From IMG/VR virus record IMGVR_UViG_2651869725_000007: a DNA stretch of 30,931 nt. One strand, written 5' to 3'. Of this stretch, positions 512-30,874 are shown one piece after another; the stretch's first letter is position 1; the number at the start of each line of letters is the position of its first letter. A program made the translations under genes and the position numbers. A model generated the notes under the pieces. It was not told where the DNA came from, searched no databases, and was given only the letters and a program-made list of their open reading frames with translations. The DNA comes from a virus. Lineage: Duplodnaviria; Heunggongvirae; Uroviricota; Caudoviricetes.

Positions 512-3069
512 CGTCCACCTCCGGAGAACAGACCACCATCGCGCATCTGCCCGGTCACAACATCCATTGCCGCCTTACGGGCTACGTCATAAACCGCCTT
601 CAGTGCCTGTGGCCCTATCTGACCGTTCGTGCCGTCGTTGTTAATCACCACATGGTTATTCTGCTCAAACGTCCCGGACGCCTGCGACCGGCTGTCCACC
701 ATGCTGCCCGGTGTACCGACATAACCGCCGGTGGCATAGCCGCGCATCAGCCGGTAAAGATTCCCCACGCCAATCCGGCTGGTTGCCTCCTTCGTGAAGA
801 CAAACTCACCACGGTGAACAATCCCCGCTGGCTCATATTTGCCGCCGGTTCCCGTAAACCCTCCGGCCGCAAAATGGAATTTCGCCGCAGCGGCCTGAAT
901 GGCTGTACCGCCTGACGCGGATGCGCCGCCACCAACAGCCCCGCCAATGGCGCTGCCGATACTCCCGACAATCCCCACCATTGCCTGCTTAAGCAGAATT
1001 TCTGTCATCATGGACAGCACGGAACGGGTGAAGCTGCGCCAGTTCTGCTCACTGCCGGTCAGCATCGCCGCCATATTCTGTGCAATACCATCAAAGGTCT
1101 GCGTGGCAGCACTTTTAACCTGCGACATACTGTCCGTGGCGCTCTCTTCCCACTCACTCCAGCCGGACCTCAGGCCTGCCATCCAGCTCCCGCGAAGCTG
1201 GTCTTCAGCCGCCCAGGTCTTTTTCTGCTCTGACATGACGTTATTCAGCGCCAGAGGATTATCGCCATACTGTTCCTTCAGGCGCTGTTCCGTGGCTTCC
1301 CGCGCTGCCTGCCGGTCAGTCAGCCCCCGGCTTTTCGCATCAATGGCGGCCCGTTTTGCCCGTTGCTGCTGTGCGAATTTATCCGCCTGCTGCGCCAGCG
1401 CATTCAGACGCTCCTGATACGTGACCTTATCGCCAAGTACAGCCAGCTGGCGTTTGTACTCCAGCGTCTCATCTTTATGCGCCAGCAGGGATTTCTCCTG
1501 TGCGGACAGCTGGCGACGTTGTGCCGCCTCCTCCAGTACCGCGAACTGACTCTCCGCCTTCCACAAATCCCGGCGCTGCTGGCTGATTTTCTCATTCGCT
1601 CCGGCATGCTTCTCCAGCATCCGGAGTTCAGCCTGAAGCGTCAGCAGGGCAGCATGAGCACTGTCTTCCTGACGATCGCCCGCAGACACCTTCACGCCGG
1701 ACTGTTTCGGCTTTTTCAGCGTCGCTTCATAATCCTTTTTCGCCGCCGCCATCAGCGTGTTGTAATCCGCCTGCAGGATTTTCCCGTCTTTCAGTGCCTT
1801 ATTCAGTTCTTCCTGACGGGCGGTATATTTCTCCAGCGGCGTCTGCAGACGTTCGTAAGCCTTCTGCGCCTCTTCGGTATATTTCAGCCGTGACGCTTCG
1901 GTATCGCTCTGCTGCTGCGCATTTTTGTCCTGTTGAGTCTGCTGCTCAGCCTTCTTTCGGGCGGCTTCAAGCGCAAGACGGGCCTTTTCACGATCATCCC
2001 AGTAACGCGCCCGCGCTTCATCGTTAACAAAATAATCATCCTTGCGCAGATTCCAGATATCGTCCGCTTTCTTAAACGCGGCCTCTGCCTTAATCAGCAT
2101 CTCCTGCGCGGTATCAGGACGACCAATATCCAGCACCGCATCCCACATGGATTTGAAGGCCCGCGCTGTCCTGTCTGCCCAGGTCTCCAGCGTGCCCATG
2201 TTCTCTTTCAGGCGGCGGGTCTGGTCATCAAACCCTTTCGTCGCGGCCTCGTTCGCCGCCTGCAATGCCCCGGCTTCATCGCCGGAACGCTGCAACTGAG
2301 CAACATACGCAATCTGCTCCGCCGTCACGTTATGGAACTGGCGCGCCATCGCTGTCAGCCCCGACGTCGGGTCAGTGGTCAGCTTCCCGAAGGCTTCAGC
2401 GACCTTGTCCACCTCCACGCCGGATGCAGAGGAGAAACGCGCCACACTCTGGCTGATGGACGCAATCTGAGCCTCACCGCTTACCCCCGCCTTAACCAGT
2501 GCGCTGAGTGACTCGCTGGTCTGGTTAAACGTCAGCCCTGCCGCCAGCCCGGCTCTGGACAGGACCAGCATACGATCTGCCGTCAGACCCGACTGATTGC
2601 CGGAAAGGACCAGCGTTTTGTTGAAATCGGACAGGGTTGAGTTGCCCTGATACCAGGCATACGCCAGCGCACCGGTCGCCACCGCCAGCGAGGTGGCCCC
2701 CACCATCGGCAGGGTGATCGCACCGGCAAGCCCCCTGAACATGGGGATAATCCCGCCGAAGGAGTCCTTCACCTGACCACCCTGTTGCAGCAGGATCAGC
2801 CACGGACTTTGCCCGCCTGCAAGCTGCGTGACCACGTCAGTGAACTGCGCAGGCAGCATACGCATGGCAGCTTTATACTGCCCGACGGAAATCCCCGCTT
2901 TCTGTGCAGCCAGCGCCTGCCGGCTCAGCGACTGTTCAACGACTGCCGCTGTTTTTTTCGCATCACTTTCCGTACCGGAAAAATGACGCCTGACTCTGGC
3001 CATCTGCTCGTCAAATCTGGCCGCATCCAGACTTAAATCAACGACCAGATCGCCTACCGGTTCAGCCAT
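508..3069 (-). CDS. H: tail tape measure protein
   Basis: 853-aa ORF, same length as lambda gpH; coiled-coil-rich middle and Gly-rich C-terminus; sits after G/T. Confidence 0.93.
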   Translation of the reverse strand: MAEPVGDLVVDLSLDAARFDEQMARVRRHFSGTESDAKKTAAVVEQSLSRQALAAQKAGISVGQYKAAMRMLPAQFTDVVTQLAGGQSPWLILLQQGGQVKDSFGGIIPMFRGLAGAITLPMVGATSLAVATGALAYAWYQGNSTLSDFNKTLVLSGNQSGLTADRMLVLSRAGLAAGLTFNQTSESLSALVKAGVSGEAQIASISQSVARFSSASGVEVDKVAEAFGKLTTDPTSGLTAMARQFHNVTAEQIAYVAQLQRSGDEAGALQAANEAATKGFDDQTRRLKENMGTLETWADRTARAFKSMWDAVLDIGRPDTAQEMLIKAEAAFKKADDIWNLRKDDYFVNDEARARYWDDREKARLALEAARKKAEQQTQQDKNAQQQSDTEASRLKYTEEAQKAYERLQTPLEKYTARQEELNKALKDGKILQADYNTLMAAAKKDYEATLKKPKQSGVKVSAGDRQEDSAHAALLTLQAELRMLEKHAGANEKISQQRRDLWKAESQFAVLEEAAQRRQLSAQEKSLLAHKDETLEYKRQLAVLGDKVTYQERLNALAQQADKFAQQQRAKRAAIDAKSRGLTDRQAAREATEQRLKEQYGDNPLALNNVMSEQKKTWAAEDQLRGSWMAGLRSGWSEWEESATDSMSQVKSAATQTFDGIAQNMAAMLTGSEQNWRSFTRSVLSMMTEILLKQAMVGIVGSIGSAIGGAVGGGASASGGTAIQAAAAKFHFAAGGFTGTGGKYEPAGIVHRGEFVFTKEATSRIGVGNLYRLMRGYATGGYVGTPGSMVDSRSQASGTFEQNNHVVINNDGTNGQIGPQALKAVYDVARKAAMDVVTGQMRDGGLFSGGGR

Positions 3070-3900
3070 ACCGGATTCCTCCTGCGATCCCTTCTGATAC
3101 TGTCATCAGCATTACGTCATCCTCCGTCATGTCCGCCACATCCGGGGAAACGGGGATAACTTCATTCCCGTCCGGACCAAAACGAACGCCTCCGGCAAGC
3201 CCTGCCGCTTTCTGCATCAGCACATCATCTTCAGGCTCTTCGTCAGCCTCACGCCGGTTCAGCAGACTGAAATCCAGCGGATGCATATCCGGATCGCTGA
3301 AAAACAGGCTGAGCACGGTGTACGTCAGCCCGGAAAAGTGCATATCCAGCAGAACATCATGAAAATAATGGGTACTGTAAAAGCGGTGCCAGTCGGCATA
3401 CTCCGTGGATGACATCCCGGCAAGCATGGCACGCCAGTCGGGTCGCCCCATCTCACGCGCCAGTTTCAGGGCAAAACTCAGCTCACCGTCGAACACTTTC
3501 CCGCAGAAACAGGCTCTGCAGGCCCGGCGTCCTCTGCCTGTTCAGGGGCATCATTCACCACAAACTCATACATACCAGACAGCCGGTACACCACGTTTTC
3601 AGCATGAGAAATTGCCTCCGCGGGCCAGGTGGTAAGCACTTCCTGCTCAATCTGTTTAACGGCTTCATTCATGGACGGCATCTGCGTCTTCTGCGGATGG
3701 TTATGCCACAGGGACATCGCCACCACAAAAGCGCCGGTTCTGATGGCGTCTTCCACAGTAAACTTCCGGTTGCTGTCTGACTCCGCCTGTTCTGCCTGCC
3801 GTTTCATCAGGGCGAGATGCTCAATACGCTGCAGGGCTGACAGTTCAGAAAGCGTGACGGTCACACCGTTATGTTCAAATGATTCGGTTTTCAGGAACAT
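3062..3900 (-). CDS. T: tail assembly chaperone G-T fusion made by programmed -1 frameshift
   Basis: T-frame ORF 3062-3496 overlaps the end of G; the slippery heptamer GGGAAAG lies at the junction (3496-3502 on the minus strand), as in lambda. Confidence 0.8.
3478..3900 (-). CDS. G: tail assembly chaperone G
   Basis: 140-aa ORF matching lambda gpG in length and sequence as recalled; directly upstream of the T frame. Confidence 0.9.
   Translation of the reverse strand: MFLKTESFEHNGVTVTLSELSALQRIEHLALMKRQAEQAESDSNRKFTVEDAIRTGAFVVAMSLWHNHPQKTQMPSMNEAVKQIEQEVLTTWPAEAISHAENVVYRLSGMYEFVVNDAPEQAEDAGPAEPVSAGKCSTVS
3496..3502 (-). other. G-T slippery heptamer (GGGAAAG) for the -1 ribosomal frameshift
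   Basis: The plus strand reads CTTTCCC at 3496-3502, at the overlap of the G and T reading frames. Confidence 0.8.
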
Positions 3901-9193: not shown

Positions 9194-12874
<3,681 letters not shown>

Positions 12875-12900
<26 letters not shown>

Positions 12901-13420
12901 TCAGCAACCCCGGTATCAGTTCATCCAGCGCGGCTGCTTTGTTCATGGCTTTGATGATATCCCGTTTCAGAAAATCAACATGTCGGTTTTCCAGTTCCGG
13001 AAAACGCCGCTGCACCGACAGGAGGATCCCGTCGAGAATACTGGCAATTTCACCTGCGATCCGCGACAGCACGAAAGTACAGAATGCGGTTTCCACCACT
13101 TCAGCGGAGTCTCTGGCATTTTTCAGCTCCTGTGCGTCGGCCTGCGCACGCGTAAGTCGATGGCGTTCGTACTCAATAGTCCCTGGCTGGAGATCTGTCT
13201 CGCTAGCCTGCCGCAGTTCTTCAACTTCCCGGCGCAGCTTTTCGTTCTCAATTTCAGCATCCCTTTCGGCATACCATTTTATGACGGCGGCAGAGTCATA
13301 AAGCACCTCATTACCCTTGCCACCGCCTCGCAGAACGGGCATTCCCTGTTCCTGCCAGTTCTGAATGGTACGGATACTCGCACCGAAAATGTCAGCCAGC
13401 TGCTTTTTGTTGACTTCCAT
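12875..13420 (-). CDS. nu1: terminase small subunit Nu1
   Basis: 181-aa ORF matching lambda Nu1 (MEVNKKQLADIFGASIRTIQNWQEQGMPVLRGGGKGNEVLYD...). Confidence 0.95.
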
Positions 13421-13439
13421 TGTTCATTCCACGGACAAA

Positions 13440-13640
13440 AACAGAGAAAGGAAACGACAGAGGCCAAAAAGCTCGCTTTCAGCACCTGTCGTTTCCTTTC
13501 TTTTCAGAGGGTATTTTAAATAAAAACATTAAGTTATGACGAAGAAGAACGGAAACGCCTTAAACCGGAAAATTTTCATAAATAGCGAAAACCCGCGAGG
13601 TCGCCGCCCCGTAGCCTGCCGGATCGCCGGAAAGGACCCG
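13440..13640. promoter_or_regulatory. cos: cos region: cosB between cosN and Nu1, cosQ on the far side
   Basis: Reverse complement of the lambda left end and right end as recalled (…CGGTTTAAGGCGTTTCCGTTCTTCTTCGTCATAACTTAATG…). Confidence 0.85.
13598..13609. promoter_or_regulatory. cosN: cosN, the 12-nt cohesive-end sequence
   Basis: AGGTCGCCGCCC on the plus strand is the reverse complement of the lambda cohesive end GGGCGGCGACCT. Confidence 0.85.
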
Positions 13641-13808
13641 CAAAATGATAATAATTATCATCTACATGTCACAACGTGCATCTACGCCATCAAACCACGT
13701 CAAATAATCAATTATGACGCAGGTATCGTATTAATTGATCTGCATCAACTTAACGTAAAAACAACTTCAGACAATACAAATCAGCGACACTGAATACGGG
13801 GCAACCTC

Positions 13809-14033
13809 ATGTCAACGAAGAACAGAACCCGCAGAACAACAACCCGCAACATCCGCTTTCCTAACCAAATGATTGAACAAATTAACATCGCTCTTGATCA
13901 GAAAGGTTCAGGTAATTTTTCAGCGTGGGTTATTGAAGCCTGCAGAAGAAGATTAATTAATGAAAAACATGCTCAATTTGTACCCAACAAAGACAAACAC
14001 GACCAGAGCACCTGTTCAGACAGGTTTACTTAA
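13809..14033 (+). CDS. small ribbon-helix-helix-like protein, YlcI/DUF3950-like
   Basis: 74-aa ORF on the strand opposite to late genes, just past cos; Arg/Thr-rich N-terminus then IRFPNQMIEQINIALDQKGSGNFSAWVIEACRRRL. Family assigned from memory. Confidence 0.45.
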   Translation: MSTKNRTRRTTTRNIRFPNQMIEQINIALDQKGSGNFSAWVIEACRRRLINEKHAQFVPNKDKHDQSTCSDRFT

Positions 14034-14051
14034 ACGACTTATATATGACAC

Positions 14052-14080
14052 AAAAAGCGACCACTAAAGTCGCTTTTTCT
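14052..14080. terminator. bidirectional intrinsic terminator between convergent genes
   Basis: Hairpin AAAAGCGAC-CACTAA-GTCGCTTTTT with an A-run upstream and a T-run downstream. Confidence 0.5.
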
Positions 14081-14114
14081 TATGGTAACAGGCAATAACG
14101 CTCTCAGATATTTT

Positions 14115-14429
14115 TTAGCATTTTTTTGACCGCGCGTTTCCGGACGTATTCTGTTCTCCTGTCCCTTTATATCGTCGGAATACCCGCCGCTCTTCAAATC
14201 CCATTCCCAACTCAGAATGTAGTCTGTTGACCGCTTGTTTTATTTCGGTCAGGTTCACCGGTGAAACCGAAGTCCGGCGCGCCTTACGCAAACACTCTGC
14301 TCGTTTCTGTGCTGCCACTTTTCTTTTCTGGTCATCACTTAGCTGTACCATCACTTTTGCCCATCGTTCAGCTGCTCTCCGGTACAGTCCTTTTTTCTCC
14401 AGACATTCTGCCACGTGATCATGTAGCAT
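14115..14429 (-). CDS. PerC/Pch-family transcriptional activator-like protein
   Basis: 104-aa ORF with a motif ...LEKKGLYRRAAERWAKVM... resembling the PerC family signature as I recall it; assigned from memory. Confidence 0.4.
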   Translation of the reverse strand: MLHDHVAECLEKKGLYRRAAERWAKVMVQLSDDQKRKVAAQKRAECLRKARRTSVSPVNLTEIKQAVNRLHSELGMGFEERRVFRRYKGTGEQNTSGNARSKKC

Positions 14430-14893
14430 AAGTGACCTCCGATTATCTACAGACTGCCATCATGAATTTACCTTCCCTTAATGAAATAACAATAAAAAAT
14501 AAATCACAGAAAAACAATAAAACAACACACAAAAAACTAAATAATAAACAAAAATAATCACCTTATTTTATTATTTTTTGAGGGAGCGATTACTGAACAA
14601 AAAACGCTGACTATATACTCAAAACCAAACAACTATTCTGTCAATCAGGTATCATGGCAACACACGGAATTACCGTGTTTTTGCCTTCTCTGCCCATACA
14701 ATACGGGCATATACTTAATACTCTATTGTAATATTTCTATCCATGCGCCCCACTCCATTTACCTGTAAATAATATTCAAAATATTTATCACAGAAATCGT
14801 TTTTGGCCATGAACTGAGCACACTATAAAGTCCGGAACTGACTTTTTGTTAAATTACCTTAACGTTACCAGTAACACTTTTCATAACAAAACA

Positions 14894-15373
14894 TCACGGT
14901 ATACACTGGGTACGGATATATTCCTGTGCTCCTTCCAGTTGCTTTTGCATTGTCATCAGCCGTTCTCTGAGGGTGAAATAATCCCGTTCAGCGGTGTCTG
15001 CCAGTCGGGGGGCGGCTGCATTACCCACGCCGGGGGCGGCGGTGGCTTCACGTCCGGCCTGACAGACTGCTCTGATGCGCAACCGACGACGACCAGCGGC
15101 AATATCATCACGCAGAGCATCATTTTCAGCTTTTGCATCAGCTAACTCCCTTGAGTATTTTTCATCCAGTGCAGCAACATCGCGCTGACGCTGCTGCATG
15201 TCAGTAATGGTGGCGTTCGCCTTGCTGAGTTTTTCCTTCGCTTTATCGAGCTGGTCTTTGTAGGCGATGGCGTTATCACGATAATAATTGACTGCCCATG
15301 ACAGGCAGACGATGATGCAAATAACCAGAGCATAAATAATCGCGGCGACTCTGCTCACTGATCTATCCCCCAA
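14894..15373 (-). CDS. Rz: i-spanin Rz
   Basis: Matches lambda Rz (…[26 protein letters not shown]…[11 protein letters not shown]…); overlaps the end of R. Confidence 0.88.
14956..15138 (-). CDS. Rz1: o-spanin Rz1, lipoprotein embedded in Rz
   Basis: 60-aa ORF nested in another frame of Rz: [22 protein letters not shown]…[27 protein letters not shown]; lipobox and Pro-rich core as in lambda Rz1. Confidence 0.85.
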
Positions 15374-15888
15374 CAGGCTAATGCGCTTTCCTGGTCACGA
15401 CGAATAACCTGTCCATAGCAGTTATTTGAACGTATGCGGCAATCGCGCCCACCATCTTTTATCCACCAGCGAATCGCCTCGCATGCACCCTTACGATCAC
15501 CGGCATTCAGCCGCTTATAAAACGTCGACGGGAAACACTTACCGGGGCCAATGTTATAGGGACAAAATGACGCGATACCCGCTTTCTGTGGTTCAGTCAG
15601 TGGTACTTTAATATTGCGCTCCACCCATGCCAGCGCCTTATCACGTTCAATGGCGTTAACCAGGTCGCATTTTTCCTTCGACAGTTTCATACCGGGAAAA
15701 ACGGGTTTTCCATCCACCACCGTGGCCCCCCGACAGATGGTCCATATGCCGGAACCATCGCAGTATGCCGCTGTGTGGTTACCTTCTTTTTCGTCCAGAA
15801 ACTGGTCGAGTATTTGAGGAGCAGACGCGCCTGCAGCAATCAGCGCCAGAACGGCTGCTGACAGGCCGTATTTGATATTAGCATTCAT
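15355..15888 (-). CDS. R: SAR endolysin (GH24 lysozyme with N-terminal signal-anchor-release segment)
   Basis: 177-aa ORF with a hydrophobic N-terminus ([15 protein letters not shown]) followed by a catalytic E…D…T pattern typical of T4-type lysozymes. Confidence 0.85.
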
Positions 15889-16015: not shown

Positions 16016-16312
16016 ATGAACGGTATAGATCCATTCAAACCAATCAGTAAGCAACTTGATGTGGTATTACCACAACTGACAAAACACAACGACCTTCTGG
16101 ATAAAGTGTTGCCTTTTTATATTGCTGTTACCGCAAAATTATCAGGTAAAACTCGAGAAGAGGTTCTCAAATATAACATGCTGGCTTTAGAAACAATTTT
16201 TGGCTCAGAAAAAGCGGGAAAATCACCCAAAGAGCTGGCAGAATCTCAATTTGCTTATATGACAAATATAAGAGTATCCGAAATCTTTGATAAGCTACCA
16301 GACATTGAATAA
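16016..16312 (+). CDS. hypothetical protein, antisense to the late operon
   Basis: 98-aa ORF with an AAGGGA ribosome-binding site and its own downstream terminator; no family recognised. Confidence 0.5.
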   Translation: MNGIDPFKPISKQLDVVLPQLTKHNDLLDKVLPFYIAVTAKLSGKTREEVLKYNMLALETIFGSEKAGKSPKELAESQFAYMTNIRVSEIFDKLPDIE

Positions 16313-16559: not shown

Positions 16560-16775
16560 TTACTCTCCTCTCGCAGCCTTACGCCTGTCTTCTTTAATTT
16601 TGAAATAAAGGTTTGTCAGGTACGTCAGCAAGCCAAACACCAGGCTACCCAATACACCTATTGCCACCCACTGGGATGGGGAGACTTTGTCCAGCAACTG
16701 CAGTAGCCAGTATCCCGTCCCCACCGCTGAAGTGGTGTATGACACACCTGTTGTGATTTTTTCCATCTGGTACAT
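16560..16775 (-). CDS. S: class II holin / pinholin (phage 21 S-type) with dual start motif
   Basis: …[71 protein letters not shown] matches phage 21 S pattern; two Met codons 3 residues apart. Confidence 0.85.
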
Positions 16776-17184
16776 ACCCCGTCTCCCGTTATCCGGAAGC
16801 TGACAACAATAAAAAGCCACCAGTTAATTCCTGATGTCCCTGAGGCATAAACGTCATAATACCTGACTGTTATGATTGACAATAATGATAATGTTTATAT
16901 AGAAAGGTTCCCGATATGTGTTACATATCATTTCTCCACGGGGAATATCCCCACGCCAGCGCAGACTCTTTTACCCGTTCTCTTCTGCGCTGGCTCTTTT
17001 TTTATTATGCTGCTGCATTTACCTCTGGCACCAGGCTTTTTATCTCAACACCATACGTGGTACTTCGTGTAACCAATATCATAACGATTAATCGACATCG
17101 AATTTCTCCCGTGTACAGGAACAGAGTTAAAAAGCCGGAACCGGAATCAAATCACAGGATGACCATCTGCCAGTGGCTGGTCGT

Positions 17185-17212: not shown

Positions 17213-17426
17213 GAAATAAAGGGATAACGATGATAGTTTGAGAAAAACAGAAATAACACTTTTGTGGCAAAGCATGGTGCCGGGTGCCTCCCGGTGAATT
17301 CAGCCGGTGTCACTGAACCCGCGTCGGCTTGCCTATAACATAATAAATGCTACCTACACCAGTCGCCCCTCCGCACAGGGGGATTCACCATGCAGAAGTG
17401 TTTTTAATAAACAGTAAACAAAAAAA

Positions 17427-18192: not shown

Positions 18193-18269
18193 TGGTGCGT
18201 TGTACTGGGTTCGAACCAGTGACCGATTGCTTAGAAGGCAATTGCTCTGTCCGGCTGAGCTAACAACGC
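18193..18269 (-). tRNA. tRNA-Arg (anticodon UCU)
   Basis: Hand-folded cloverleaf on the minus strand: 7-bp acceptor stem, anticodon loop CTTCTAA, T-loop TTCGAAC, 3' CCA encoded. Confidence 0.88.
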
Positions 18270-18282
18270 AGAATACCGATAA

Positions 18283-18359
18283 TGGACCGCCATCGGAGAC
18301 TCGAACCCCGCGAAACCAGCTTCGAAGGCTGGCGTTCTATCCCGATGAGCTAATGGCGG
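18283..18359 (-). tRNA. tRNA-Arg (anticodon UCG)
   Basis: Cloverleaf on the minus strand with anticodon loop CTTCGAA, T-loop TTCGAGT, 3' CCA; one mismatch in the D stem. Confidence 0.82.
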
Positions 18360-18360
18360 T

Positions 18361-18436
18361 TGGTGGCCCTTGCTGGATTTGAACCAGCGACCTGGCGATT
18401 ATGAGTCGCTCGCTCTCACCACTGAGCTAAAGGGCC
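18361..18436 (-). tRNA. tRNA-Ile2 (anticodon CAU), ileX/ileZ-like
   Basis: Minus-strand sequence GGCCCTTTAGCTCAGTGG…CTCATAATCGCC…GGTTCAAATCC…GGGCCACCA closely follows E. coli ileX as recalled. Confidence 0.85.
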
Positions 18437-23189: not shown

Positions 23190-23345
23190 TTACTCCTCAG
23201 GTTCGTAAGCTGTGAAGACAGCGACCTCCGTCTGGCCGGTTCGGATTCGTACCTCGCAGAGGTCTTTCCTCGTTACCAGTGCCGTCACTATGACGGTTAA
23301 ACAGATGACGATCAGGGCGATTAACATCGCCTTTTGCTGCTTCAT
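23190..23345 (-). CDS. hokD: Hok/Gef-family membrane toxin (HokD/RelF-like)
   Basis: 51-aa product MKQQKAMLIALIVICLTVIVTALVTRKDLCEVRIRTGQTEVAVFTAYEPEE matches HokD as recalled; start at an internal ATG of the longer ORF. Confidence 0.85.
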   Translation of the reverse strand: MKQQKAMLIALIVICLTVIVTALVTRKDLCEVRIRTGQTEVAVFTAYEPEE

Positions 23346-23536
23346 AGCCTGCTTCTCCTTGACCTTTCGGTCCGTAAGAGGCAATCTATATGTGACGAGC
23401 ATATAGGGGCCTCACTTCGATTTATAGTCGGGTGGGGCTTTTATCTATCTGCCGTTGGTGTTCATGCCCAAGGCAGATAGCCTCAAGCACCCGCAGCAAT
23501 TCTACTTAACTCTGCCGTTACAGCAAGCCGTTTTCG

Positions 23537-30458: not shown

Positions 30459-30511
30459 TTTCTGGTGACGTTTGGCGGTATCAGTTTTACTCCGTGACTG
30501 CTCTGCCGCCC
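30459..30511 (+). ncRNA. dicF: DicF small regulatory RNA
   Basis: 53 nt TTTCTGGTGACGTTTGGCGGTATCAGTTTTACTCCGTGACTGCTCTGCCGCCC followed by TTTTT; matches K-12 DicF as recalled; about 175 nt upstream of dicB. Confidence 0.8.
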
Positions 30512-30685
30512 TTTTTAAAGTGAATTTTGTGATGCGGTGAATGCGGCTAAGCGCACGCGGAACAGTTAAAACCAAAAACAGTGTTATGGGTGGATTCTCT
30601 GTATCCGGCGTTAATTGTTAACTGGTTAACGTCACCTGGAGGCACCAGGCACCGCATCACAAAATTCATTGTTGAGGACGCGATA

Positions 30686-30874
30686 ATGGAAACGTTATTA
30701 CCAAACGTTAATACGTCTGAAGGTTGTTTTGAAATTGGTGTCACTATCAGTAACCCTGTATTTACTGAAGATGCCATTAACAAGAGAAAACACGAACGGG
30801 AGCTATTAAATAAAATATGCATTCTTTCAATGTTGGCCCGTTTACGTCCGATACAAAAAGGATGCTGGCAATGA
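30686..30874 (+). CDS. dicB: cell-division inhibitor DicB
   Basis: 62-aa product METLLPNVNTSEGCFEIGVTISNPVFTEDAINKRKHERELLNKICILSMLARLRPIQKGCWQ from the internal ATG of the track ORF. Confidence 0.85.
   Translation: METLLPNVNTSEGCFEIGVTISNPVFTEDAINKRKHERELLNKICILSMLARLRPIQKGCWQ

Follow-up and report, generated by a model that had tools for sequence, protein, structure and literature searches.

A group 1 pch cassette, recognized by its sequence, in the Rz-cos slot of a lambda-like prophage

Introduction

What does a lambda-like prophage hold in the slot between its last lysis gene and cos, and may the gene found there tie the virulence regulation of the host to the prophage? The question is raised by a stretch of viral DNA of 30,931 nucleotides (IMG/VR record IMGVR_UViG_2651869725_000007; Caudoviricetes), here called the window, which is prophage DNA from end to end and has the late genes of the phage on its minus strand. 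In this slot lies an open reading frame (ORF) for a protein of 104 amino acids (aa) that resembles the Pch proteins. These head the LEE virulence cascade in EHEC, atypical EPEC, and Escherichia albertii, and prophage-borne Pch is a classic case of phage regulators rewiring host virulence. Published work describes Pch as needed for full LEE expression and as binding AT-rich DNA, for the most part where H-NS is bound as well; by breaking up the silencing complex of H-NS, StpA, and Hha it turns on LEE1/ler, and it is without a recognizable DNA-binding motif (PMC4764244, PMC4456613). For the group 1 Pch proteins of strain Sakai (E. coli O157:H7), activation of LEE1/ler transcription and of adherence is established (PMC4764244, PMC4456613). 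LrhA directly activates pchA and pchB (PMC4456613), and Lrp/LeuO with butyrate, as well as NtrC/sigmaS, act upstream of pch (PMC4456613, PMC13012123, PMC10714755). [quoted passage not shown]

Layout of the Rz-cos region

The lysis genes identified by profile matches are holin (16560 to 16820, minus strand) and endolysin (15355 to 15888, minus), followed by the i-spanin gene Rz (14894 to 15373, minus; PF03245, E = 4.7e-49), which is 86% identical to Rz of lambda and 434 and has Rz1 (14956 to 15138, minus) nested inside it. Rz is the final lysis gene and the upstream neighbor of the segment under study, which comprises an AT-rich spacer or leader without a convincing gene (14430 to 14893, minus), the 104-aa ORF (14115 to 14429, minus), an intergenic stretch of 81 bp with a hairpin (14034 to 14114), and, converging with the 104-aa ORF and antisense to the late operon, a gene for a 74-aa protein of the DUF3950 or YlcI/YnfO type (13809 to 14033, plus). 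Beyond it lies the 12-nucleotide cohesive end cosN (13598 to 13609, minus), which was read directly as the reverse complement of the left end of lambda, GGGCGGCGACCT, and which parts the right from the left phage arm; in BLAST comparisons with lambda and 434, homology to their right ends begins at 13610. Nu1 (12875 to 13420, minus; PF07471, E = 1e-99) and the large terminase subunit (10975 to 12900, minus; named after the annotation in close relatives) follow. The best whole-window match among complete E. coli genomes covered 88% of the query (positions 1 to 25000) at 97.3% identity. Among complete RefSeq E. coli genomes, no full-length match to region 13400 to 15400 exceeded 94.5% identity; two assemblies, GCA_047445445.1 and GCA_028622195.1 (CP117562.1), are 100% identical to the window over 13601 to 15000. 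A search of the leader and the surroundings of cos against the Rfam families gave no match better than chance, even with E values up to 1 admitted. The sole Rfam matches near cos were microRNA models at a long palindrome (13439 to 13506), with scores far under the gathering scores.

When region 13400 to 15400 was compared with lambda and 434 by BLAST, homology was confined to 13610 to 13956 (93 to 95% identity) and 14916 to 15360 (86%). Between these blocks stands a cassette of 959 bp (13957 to 14915, minus), consisting of the tail of the DUF3950 gene, a putative terminator, the 104-aa ORF, and the leader, in place of the bor segment of lambda and 434 and with identical junctions, the left one lying inside the DUF3950 gene after codon 49. 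The initial annotation had equated this slot with that of bor in lambda, and the position of bor in lambda and 434 together with the matching flanks bears this out. The cassette has the properties of a moron: it is a discrete replacement between conserved backbone genes, its base composition is deviant (38.8% GC, compared to 51.7% for the window), and it appears to have a terminator of its own. The latter is a terminator-like hairpin of 27 nucleotides at 14052 to 14078, AAAAAGCGAC-cactaaa-GTCGCTTTTT, in which A5-GCGAC and GTCGC-T5 flank a 7-nucleotide loop. It is predicted to fold stably on both strands (centroids of -11.9 and -14.1 kcal/mol; z scores of -2.9 and -2.2), and the 81-bp intergenic stretch has one variable column across eight haplotypes (the window, Sakai pchA, pchB, and pchC, and four others). 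The hairpin agrees with the bidirectional terminator that had been proposed between the convergent genes; a simple terminator scan missed it because the A and T runs were counted as stem.

The pch cassette thus shares slot and flanks, namely Rz and codons 1 to 49 of the DUF3950 gene, with bor, which is likewise an accessory gene, expressed in the lysogen and benefiting the host. The two differ in that bor encodes an outer membrane lipoprotein and is transcribed against the late operon, whereas pch encodes a regulator and is transcribed with it. Another parallel considered, the anti-sRNA moron site of Tree et al. (2014), was rejected, as that site lies downstream of PR', outside the Rz-cos slot.

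The 104-aa protein and its family

The 104-aa protein matched the PerC profile PF06069 with 146.3 bits (E = 3.3e-43; profile positions 1 to 89 of 90), far above the curated gathering cutoff of 22.6 bits, so that its assignment to the PerC family on account of the motif GLYRRAAERW was correct. The family is small: HMMER, run exhaustively over 1.84 billion cluster representatives, retrieved only 81 of its members. When 50 of these were aligned, GLYRRAAERW proved to be the most conserved block of the family, R17, R18, A19, and W23 were invariant, and A7, L10, E11, G14, A20, R22, and C46 were conserved in at least 90%; the window protein carries every one of these residues. It also has the N-terminal block A-E-x-L-E-x-x-G-L-Y-R-R-A-A-x-R-W that characterizes these small proteins of about 90 to 105 aa. 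The AlphaFold2 model (pLDDT 80) has helices at residues 5 to 13, 16 to 29, 33 to 50, and 61 to 73. No significant match in the PDB was obtained for it, either by fold or by sequence; several of the nonsignificant matches are TPR proteins.

Within the family, the protein is nearly identical to PchA of Sakai (ECs_1091), with 103 of 104 residues in common and P54S as the single difference; residue 54 sits in the linker between the predicted helices 33 to 50 and 61 to 73, outside the invariant motif. The nucleotide identity of the coding sequence to its Sakai counterparts amounts to 99.4% for pchA, 99.0% for pchB, and 98.4% for pchC. Pch proteins of groups 2 and 3 (pchD and pchE) differ in sequence and size (PMC6265319). 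The near identity to PchA, PchB, and PchC, the length of 104 aa, and the context in a lambdoid prophage, downstream of holin, endolysin, and Rz/Rz1 and followed by cos, Nu1, and terminase, all identify the ORF, as judged by sequence, as a group 1 pch gene of the pchA/B/C type. The exact sequence is recorded as [quoted passage not shown] in E. coli and E. albertii, on 256 contigs, and is indexed in 366 blocks of an assembly collection.

The closest known systems are the three Sakai loci themselves, PchA, PchB, and PchC (ECs_1091, ECs_2182, and ECs_2737), which are located in prophages Sp4, Sp11, and Sp14, respectively. These have the same order of Rz, an AT-rich spacer of 463 to 465 bp, pch, hairpin, DUF3950 gene, cos, Nu1, and terminase, an identical terminator, and a Pch protein of 104 aa. 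In Sp4 the block is rearranged by IS elements; Sp14 also contains dicB, and its layout of tRNA, hok/sok, and Q resembles that of the window. The window differs from the Sakai loci in the P54S substitution, which results from a C>U change at +160 of the mRNA, in a leader that is some 3 to 5% diverged from those of pchA and pchC and, in its proximal part, 22% from that of pchB, and in the truncation of a small leader ORF. PerC of the EPEC plasmid pEAF (perABC) is a further relative that shares the PF06069 family, the conserved N-terminal motif, and the LEE1/ler promoter as target (PMC4456613, PMC4764244). It is, however, plasmid borne and occupies the third place in an operon governed by PerA, a regulator of the AraC type, whereas the window pch is a single-gene prophage cassette with a long AT-rich upstream region. 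More distant members of the PerC family are only about 30 to 45% identical to the window Pch.

The AT-rich leader

About 460 bp of A/T-rich noncoding DNA had been noted in front of pch. The leader measures 464 bp and has 32.1% GC; no other stretch of that length in the 30.9-kb sequence is as low (mean of all 464-bp segments, 51.8%; standard deviation, 6.4). It contains the Shine-Dalgarno (SD) sequence GGAGG of pch at 14436 to 14440. It is 95 to 97% identical to the leaders of Sakai pchA and pchC. In the proximal 170 bp, identity is high to pchA (96.5%) and pchC (94.7%) but drops to 77.6% for pchB, and this divergence fits the published differential regulation of pchA versus pchB by LrhA (cited in PMC4456613 and PMC13012123). 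Across the eight haplotypes, 1.9% of the columns vary in the coding sequence, 1.2% in the 3' untranslated region and terminator, and 15% in the leader. Judged by this variation, the coding sequence and the terminator are under strong constraint, and the leader is under looser constraint.

The AT-rich region presumably holds the promoter of pch itself as well as binding sites for regulators and for H-NS. A candidate sigma-70-like promoter, TTGCCA-17-AATAGT (9 of 12 consensus positions), lies at 14632 to 14660 on the minus strand and is the only match of this type on the sense strand of the leader; in a consensus scan, promoter-like matches in the leader region did not exceed the expectation from shuffled sequences. 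A transcription start site of pch was not found in the published work on pch regulation that was consulted. The terminator scan detected no terminator-like site on the sense strand from Rz to pch.

Proposed mode of action

Taken together, these data make it highly probable that the region is a group 1 pch cassette in the Rz-cos slot of a lambda-like prophage, acting as the Pch proteins of Sakai do. A sequence of events can be proposed on this basis. (i) In the lysogen, pch would be transcribed from its own promoter within the AT-rich region, which is probably bound by H-NS and activated by LrhA and upstream signals. (ii) The transcript would end at the hairpin at 14052 to 14078, so that cos and the packaging genes stay silent. 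(iii) The SD region would pair with part of the coding sequence and so restrain translation until DicF releases it. (iv) By analogy with Sakai, Pch would then disrupt H-NS/StpA/Hha at the LEE1 (ler) promoter and at other horizontally acquired loci and thereby switch on the type III secretion regulon. (v) After SOS induction, Q-antiterminated late transcription may read through pch as well. Such read-through is expected since pch runs in the direction of the late operon and the scan showed no terminator-like site on the sense strand between Rz and pch, and it fits the reported SOS induction of group 1 pch genes.

The proposal that a prophage copy of such a gene could link host virulence regulation to the prophage thus describes the published function of pchA, pchB, and pchC (PMC4456613, PMC4764244, PMC6265319); the window protein is 99% identical to the experimentally characterized PchA, and the link has long been known. 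The feature is a known, annotated, and experimentally studied gene cassette in its canonical position and contains nothing new. The window adds one more, slightly diverged copy of pch, and current understanding is unchanged. Its modest value lies in details, namely, the junction inside the DUF3950 gene, the co-orientation with the late operon, the constraint on coding sequence and terminator as opposed to the leader, and the presence of dicF on the same prophage.

Distribution of the cassette and of the PerC family

The 959-bp cassette was found in 673 of 5,426 complete E. coli genomes. It was always whole (at least 80% covered), carrier genomes had one to five copies each (median, 3), and the best place was 95 to 99% identical in 670 of 688 matching records. 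The carriers, among the matches listed, belong largely to the EHEC/STEC serotypes O157:H7, O55:H7, O26, O111, O103, O121, and O145. Among 50,697 deposited phage records, in contrast, the leader had one match, on a 3.1-kb fragment from the O157:H7 strain ATCC 43895, and this near absence indicates that the cassette is essentially a feature of resident prophages. The PerC family as a whole is spread more widely, with genes at 56 loci across the Enterobacterales (GTDB, one genome per species), including Klebsiella, Enterobacter, Citrobacter, Pantoea, and Erwinia. A tblastn search of the 3 kb around each of these 56 loci found no Rz, lysozyme, Nu1, or DUF3950 at any of them, and the copy in the E. 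albertii type strain is situated near fliE.

Since genes of the PerC family occur in many Enterobacterales without a LEE, activation of the LEE is not the ancestral role of the family. This distribution raises the possibility that pch is chiefly a general antisilencing factor of a mobile element, relieving H-NS on prophage and island genes, and that LEE activation is a lineage-specific addition. Most of the genera that account for the 56 loci are not known LEE carriers, the 81 cluster representatives extend across the family, and the binding sites of Pch are for the most part in AT-rich DNA occupied by H-NS, all over the chromosome and not in the LEE alone (PMC4764244). Nevertheless, we consider this reading rather unlikely for the group 1 gene of the window. 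Cassettes at least 90% identical to it are, among the matches listed, largely found in EHEC/STEC serotypes; pch-like genes of at least 76% identity occur, in the species-representative genomes, only in E. albertii and one Escherichia sp.; and the deletion of pchA and pchB phenocopies the loss of ler in EHEC (PMC13012123).

DicF and the S54 allele

The gene for the small RNA DicF is present on the window prophage itself, at 30460 to 30511 on the plus strand, in the early-left operon; it matched Rfam family RF00039 over its full length with 76.7 bits (gathering score, 48) and is followed downstream by the dicB ORF (30581 to 30874). A DicF-complementary site, ACCAGAAA, lies within the pch coding sequence at 14325 to 14332 (minus), corresponding to +98 to +105 of the pch mRNA, and is a perfect 8-nucleotide complement of the 5' end of DicF. 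It overlaps GUGAUGACC (+92 to +100), the segment with which the SD region is mainly predicted to pair. The segment from +92 to +105, whose position was assigned here by folding, would thus correspond to the anti-SD/DicF site of pch.

Folding also predicts an effect of the allele. Sakai pchA and pchC have a second segment that is predicted to pair with the SD, CUCCGGU (+158 to +164), and the C>U change at +160 abolishes it in the window. The ensemble gives the predicted helix between the SD and +158 to +164 a probability of about 0.3 to 0.6 in these two Sakai genes and of about 0 in the window, and the predicted unpaired probability of the first two guanines of the SD rises from about 0.07 to 0.25 to 0.4 in the window allele. 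The SD is therefore predicted to be modestly more accessible in the window allele. It is tempting to go further and to view the prophage as a self-contained Pch module, in which pch, its activator dicF, and late read-through are combined with a widespread S54 allele that has lost one of two SD-sequestering helices; we regard this as distinctly unlikely. If it were true, translation of the S54 allele, which E. coli and E. albertii have in common, would be closer to constitutive and less dependent on DicF and low oxygen.

Small features of the leader

The leader contains two small features that bear on whether it serves pch, as proposed above, or is an independent gene, either for a 46-aa protein or for an antisense RNA running from a plus-strand promoter-like site (14545 to 14574) to a hairpin and T-run (14662 to 14685). 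The ORF, at 14715 to 14810 on the minus strand, is intact, at 46 aa, in all three Sakai loci, and some genomes list it as a hypothetical protein. In the window lineage, however, it is cut to 31 aa by a GAA>TAA change at 14717, and in E. albertii it is also truncated and has varied independently. It has no SD upstream, the differences between paralogues are almost all nonsynonymous (about 9, versus 1 or 2 synonymous), and database matches were limited to hypothetical proteins of its own type, with no homologues beyond these. The ORF is thus probably not a gene and was rejected as a candidate. The antisense RNA is suggested by the promoter-like match and by a terminator-like hairpin on the same strand. 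The latter, at 14662 to 14678 about midway along the leader, is conserved and GC rich, with a stem of 6 bp. It folds on both strands, with z scores of -3.5 (plus) and -2.3 (minus); a T-run comes after it on the plus, or antisense, strand only. Against the antisense RNA, both the promoter-like and the terminator-like matches are at the level expected by chance for the region, the substitutions in the hairpins of pchB and pchC show no consistent covariation, and the Rfam search mentioned above yielded no family. An independent gene in the leader is consequently very improbable.

It is still less probable, to the point of being hardly credible, that the pch copy of the window is inert, either like pchD and pchE, which do not activate the LEE, or because it is unexpressed in a dead prophage: the protein does carry one substitution relative to PchA, and the restriction of the leader among phage records to the ATCC 43895 fragment suggests mostly cryptic carriers, but coding sequence, SD, terminator, and leader are intact and 95 to 100% identical to the functional Sakai copies, the exact protein recurs in the many contigs and index blocks given above, the substituted residue lies in an interhelix linker, and a viable prophage is unnecessary for a protein that acts in trans.

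The convergent DUF3950 gene

The 74-aa protein encoded convergently to pch matched PF13132 (DUF3950) with 70.6 bits (cutoff, 25; E = 9.7e-20) and the NCBIfam family NF041551 (YlcI/YnfO) with 35.6 bits (cutoff, 30). The profile searches that the initial annotation had put forward as a check, against PF06069 and DUF3950, hence both passed the curated thresholds. Its description of the 74-aa protein as RHH-like holds in part: the convergent orientation and the DUF3950 membership are clear, and the ribbon-helix-helix (RHH) fold is a plausible guess. The AlphaFold2 monomer is a poor model (pLDDT 63), with helices at residues 19 to 32 and 34 to 55 and no strand. A Foldseek search of this model against the PDB gave nonsignificant matches (best E value, 6.7), at the top of which were 7vp4/7vp5, a transcription factor-DNA complex, and the antitoxin ParD2, all of which we take to be RHH-type folds. 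A profile search of the family against PDB sequences retrieved nothing. An alignment with Arc by hhalign placed residues 12 to 33 on Arc residues 9 to 30, in the expected register, at a weak E value of 0.03 and a probability of 1.7%. The protein is possibly an Arc-like RHH DNA binder.

The origin of the gene can be stated more firmly. An alignment of 28 homologues showed that residues 1 to 49 are nearly invariant and that the tails are unrelated in sequence and length. The gene also adjoins bor in lambda, 434, and lambda-like phages, and the presence of its N-terminal part beside bor, together with the left cassette junction after codon 49, assigns it to the lambda backbone: codons 1 to 49 belong to the backbone and codons 50 to 74 form a tail specific to the pch cassette. 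On this sequence comparison, it is a conserved lambda-backbone gene and not a partner imported with pch, with which it merely shares a terminator. YlcI and YnfO of the E. coli K-12 cryptic prophages DLP12 and Qin belong to the same family according to both Pfam and NCBIfam and are located, like the window gene, beside cos and a Nu1 homologue. Their C-terminal tails are unlike that of the window protein because the recombination junction of the accessory slot falls inside the gene, after codon 49.

DicF and Pch encoded on the same prophage

A full-length match to the dicF small RNA gene (Rfam, 76.7 bits) was found at 30460-30511 on the plus strand, followed by dicB (30581-30874, plus strand). 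Both genes form part of the early-left operon of the prophage that also carries pch, the gene of a PerC-family regulator. Since DicF was shown to activate the translation of pchA (PMC7769764, PMC9438474, PMC7873438), the activator and its target are thus encoded on a single element. Similarly, prophage Sp14 of E. coli O157:H7 Sakai contains dicB as well as pchC.

The pch allele of the window differs by a C>U change at position 14270 (pch +160), which results in the P54S substitution and also weakens a second segment predicted to pair with the Shine-Dalgarno (SD) sequence, CUCCGGU at +158 to +164 in Sakai pchA and pchC. According to the folding ensemble, the predicted pairing probability of this segment drops from about 0.3-0.6 to about 0. 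Serine at position 54 is also found in a Pch protein of Escherichia albertii.

Distribution of pch and its leader

Whereas 673 complete E. coli genomes contained the AT-rich pch leader (14430-14893), a single one of 50,697 deposited phage records did, namely, a 3.1-kb fragment. Lambdoid phages carrying pch therefore seem to be known almost exclusively as resident prophages. Outside the position behind Rz, a Pch-like gene with 90% identity is located at 2971-3279 of locus L016 of the E. albertii type strain NBRC 107761, about 1.7 kb from an ORF that, recognized by eye from its sequence, we take to be fliE. Species-representative genomes contained 56 PerC-family loci, and no Rz, Nu1, or DUF3950 gene lay within 3 kb of any of them.

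The leader itself contains a small ORF (14715-14810, minus strand), annotated as hypothetical in some genomes, which encodes 46 amino acids in the leaders of Sakai pchA, pchB, and pchC, whereas a stop codon shortens it to 31 amino acids in the window and in E. albertii. This ORF is not preceded by an SD sequence, and its variation is mostly nonsynonymous. On the opposite, plus strand, a GC-rich hairpin followed by TTTTT (14662-14685; z = -3.5) lies about 100 nucleotides downstream of a weak promoter-like site (14545-14574). Together, these two elements could mark a short RNA running antisense to the region upstream of pch; evidence for such an RNA was sought, and none was found.

Elements flanking cos and the lysis genes

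The sigma-70-like match with the highest score in the region, GTGACA-16-TATCAT (13645-13672, minus strand; 10 of 12 positions), is situated between cos and the DUF3950 gene and is directed toward cos and Nu1. Between cos and the start of Nu1 there is a long palindrome (13439-13506), presumably equivalent to the lambda inverted repeat near positions 100-170 from the left end; its weak matches to microRNA models in Rfam are far below their gathering scores.

Further RNA genes include (i) a full-length match to the STnc100 small RNA family (17239-17419, minus strand; Rfam, 116.8 bits) in the interval separating the tRNA/Q block from the holin gene, the expected place of the late promoter; (ii) three tRNA genes between Q and the lysis genes (18196-18436, minus strand), whose counterparts in Sakai Sp14 and strain EC12, both close relatives, are annotated as Arg, Arg, and Ile; and (iii) the sok antitoxin RNA of a hok/sok module in the early region (23343-23492, minus strand; Rfam, 104.6 bits). 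Antisense to the late operon, a 98-amino-acid ORF (16016-16312, plus strand) is located in a 36% GC patch flanked by the endolysin and DUF1327 genes. It had no match in Pfam or NCBIfam, has a gene call in every close relative, and is possibly another accessory cassette.
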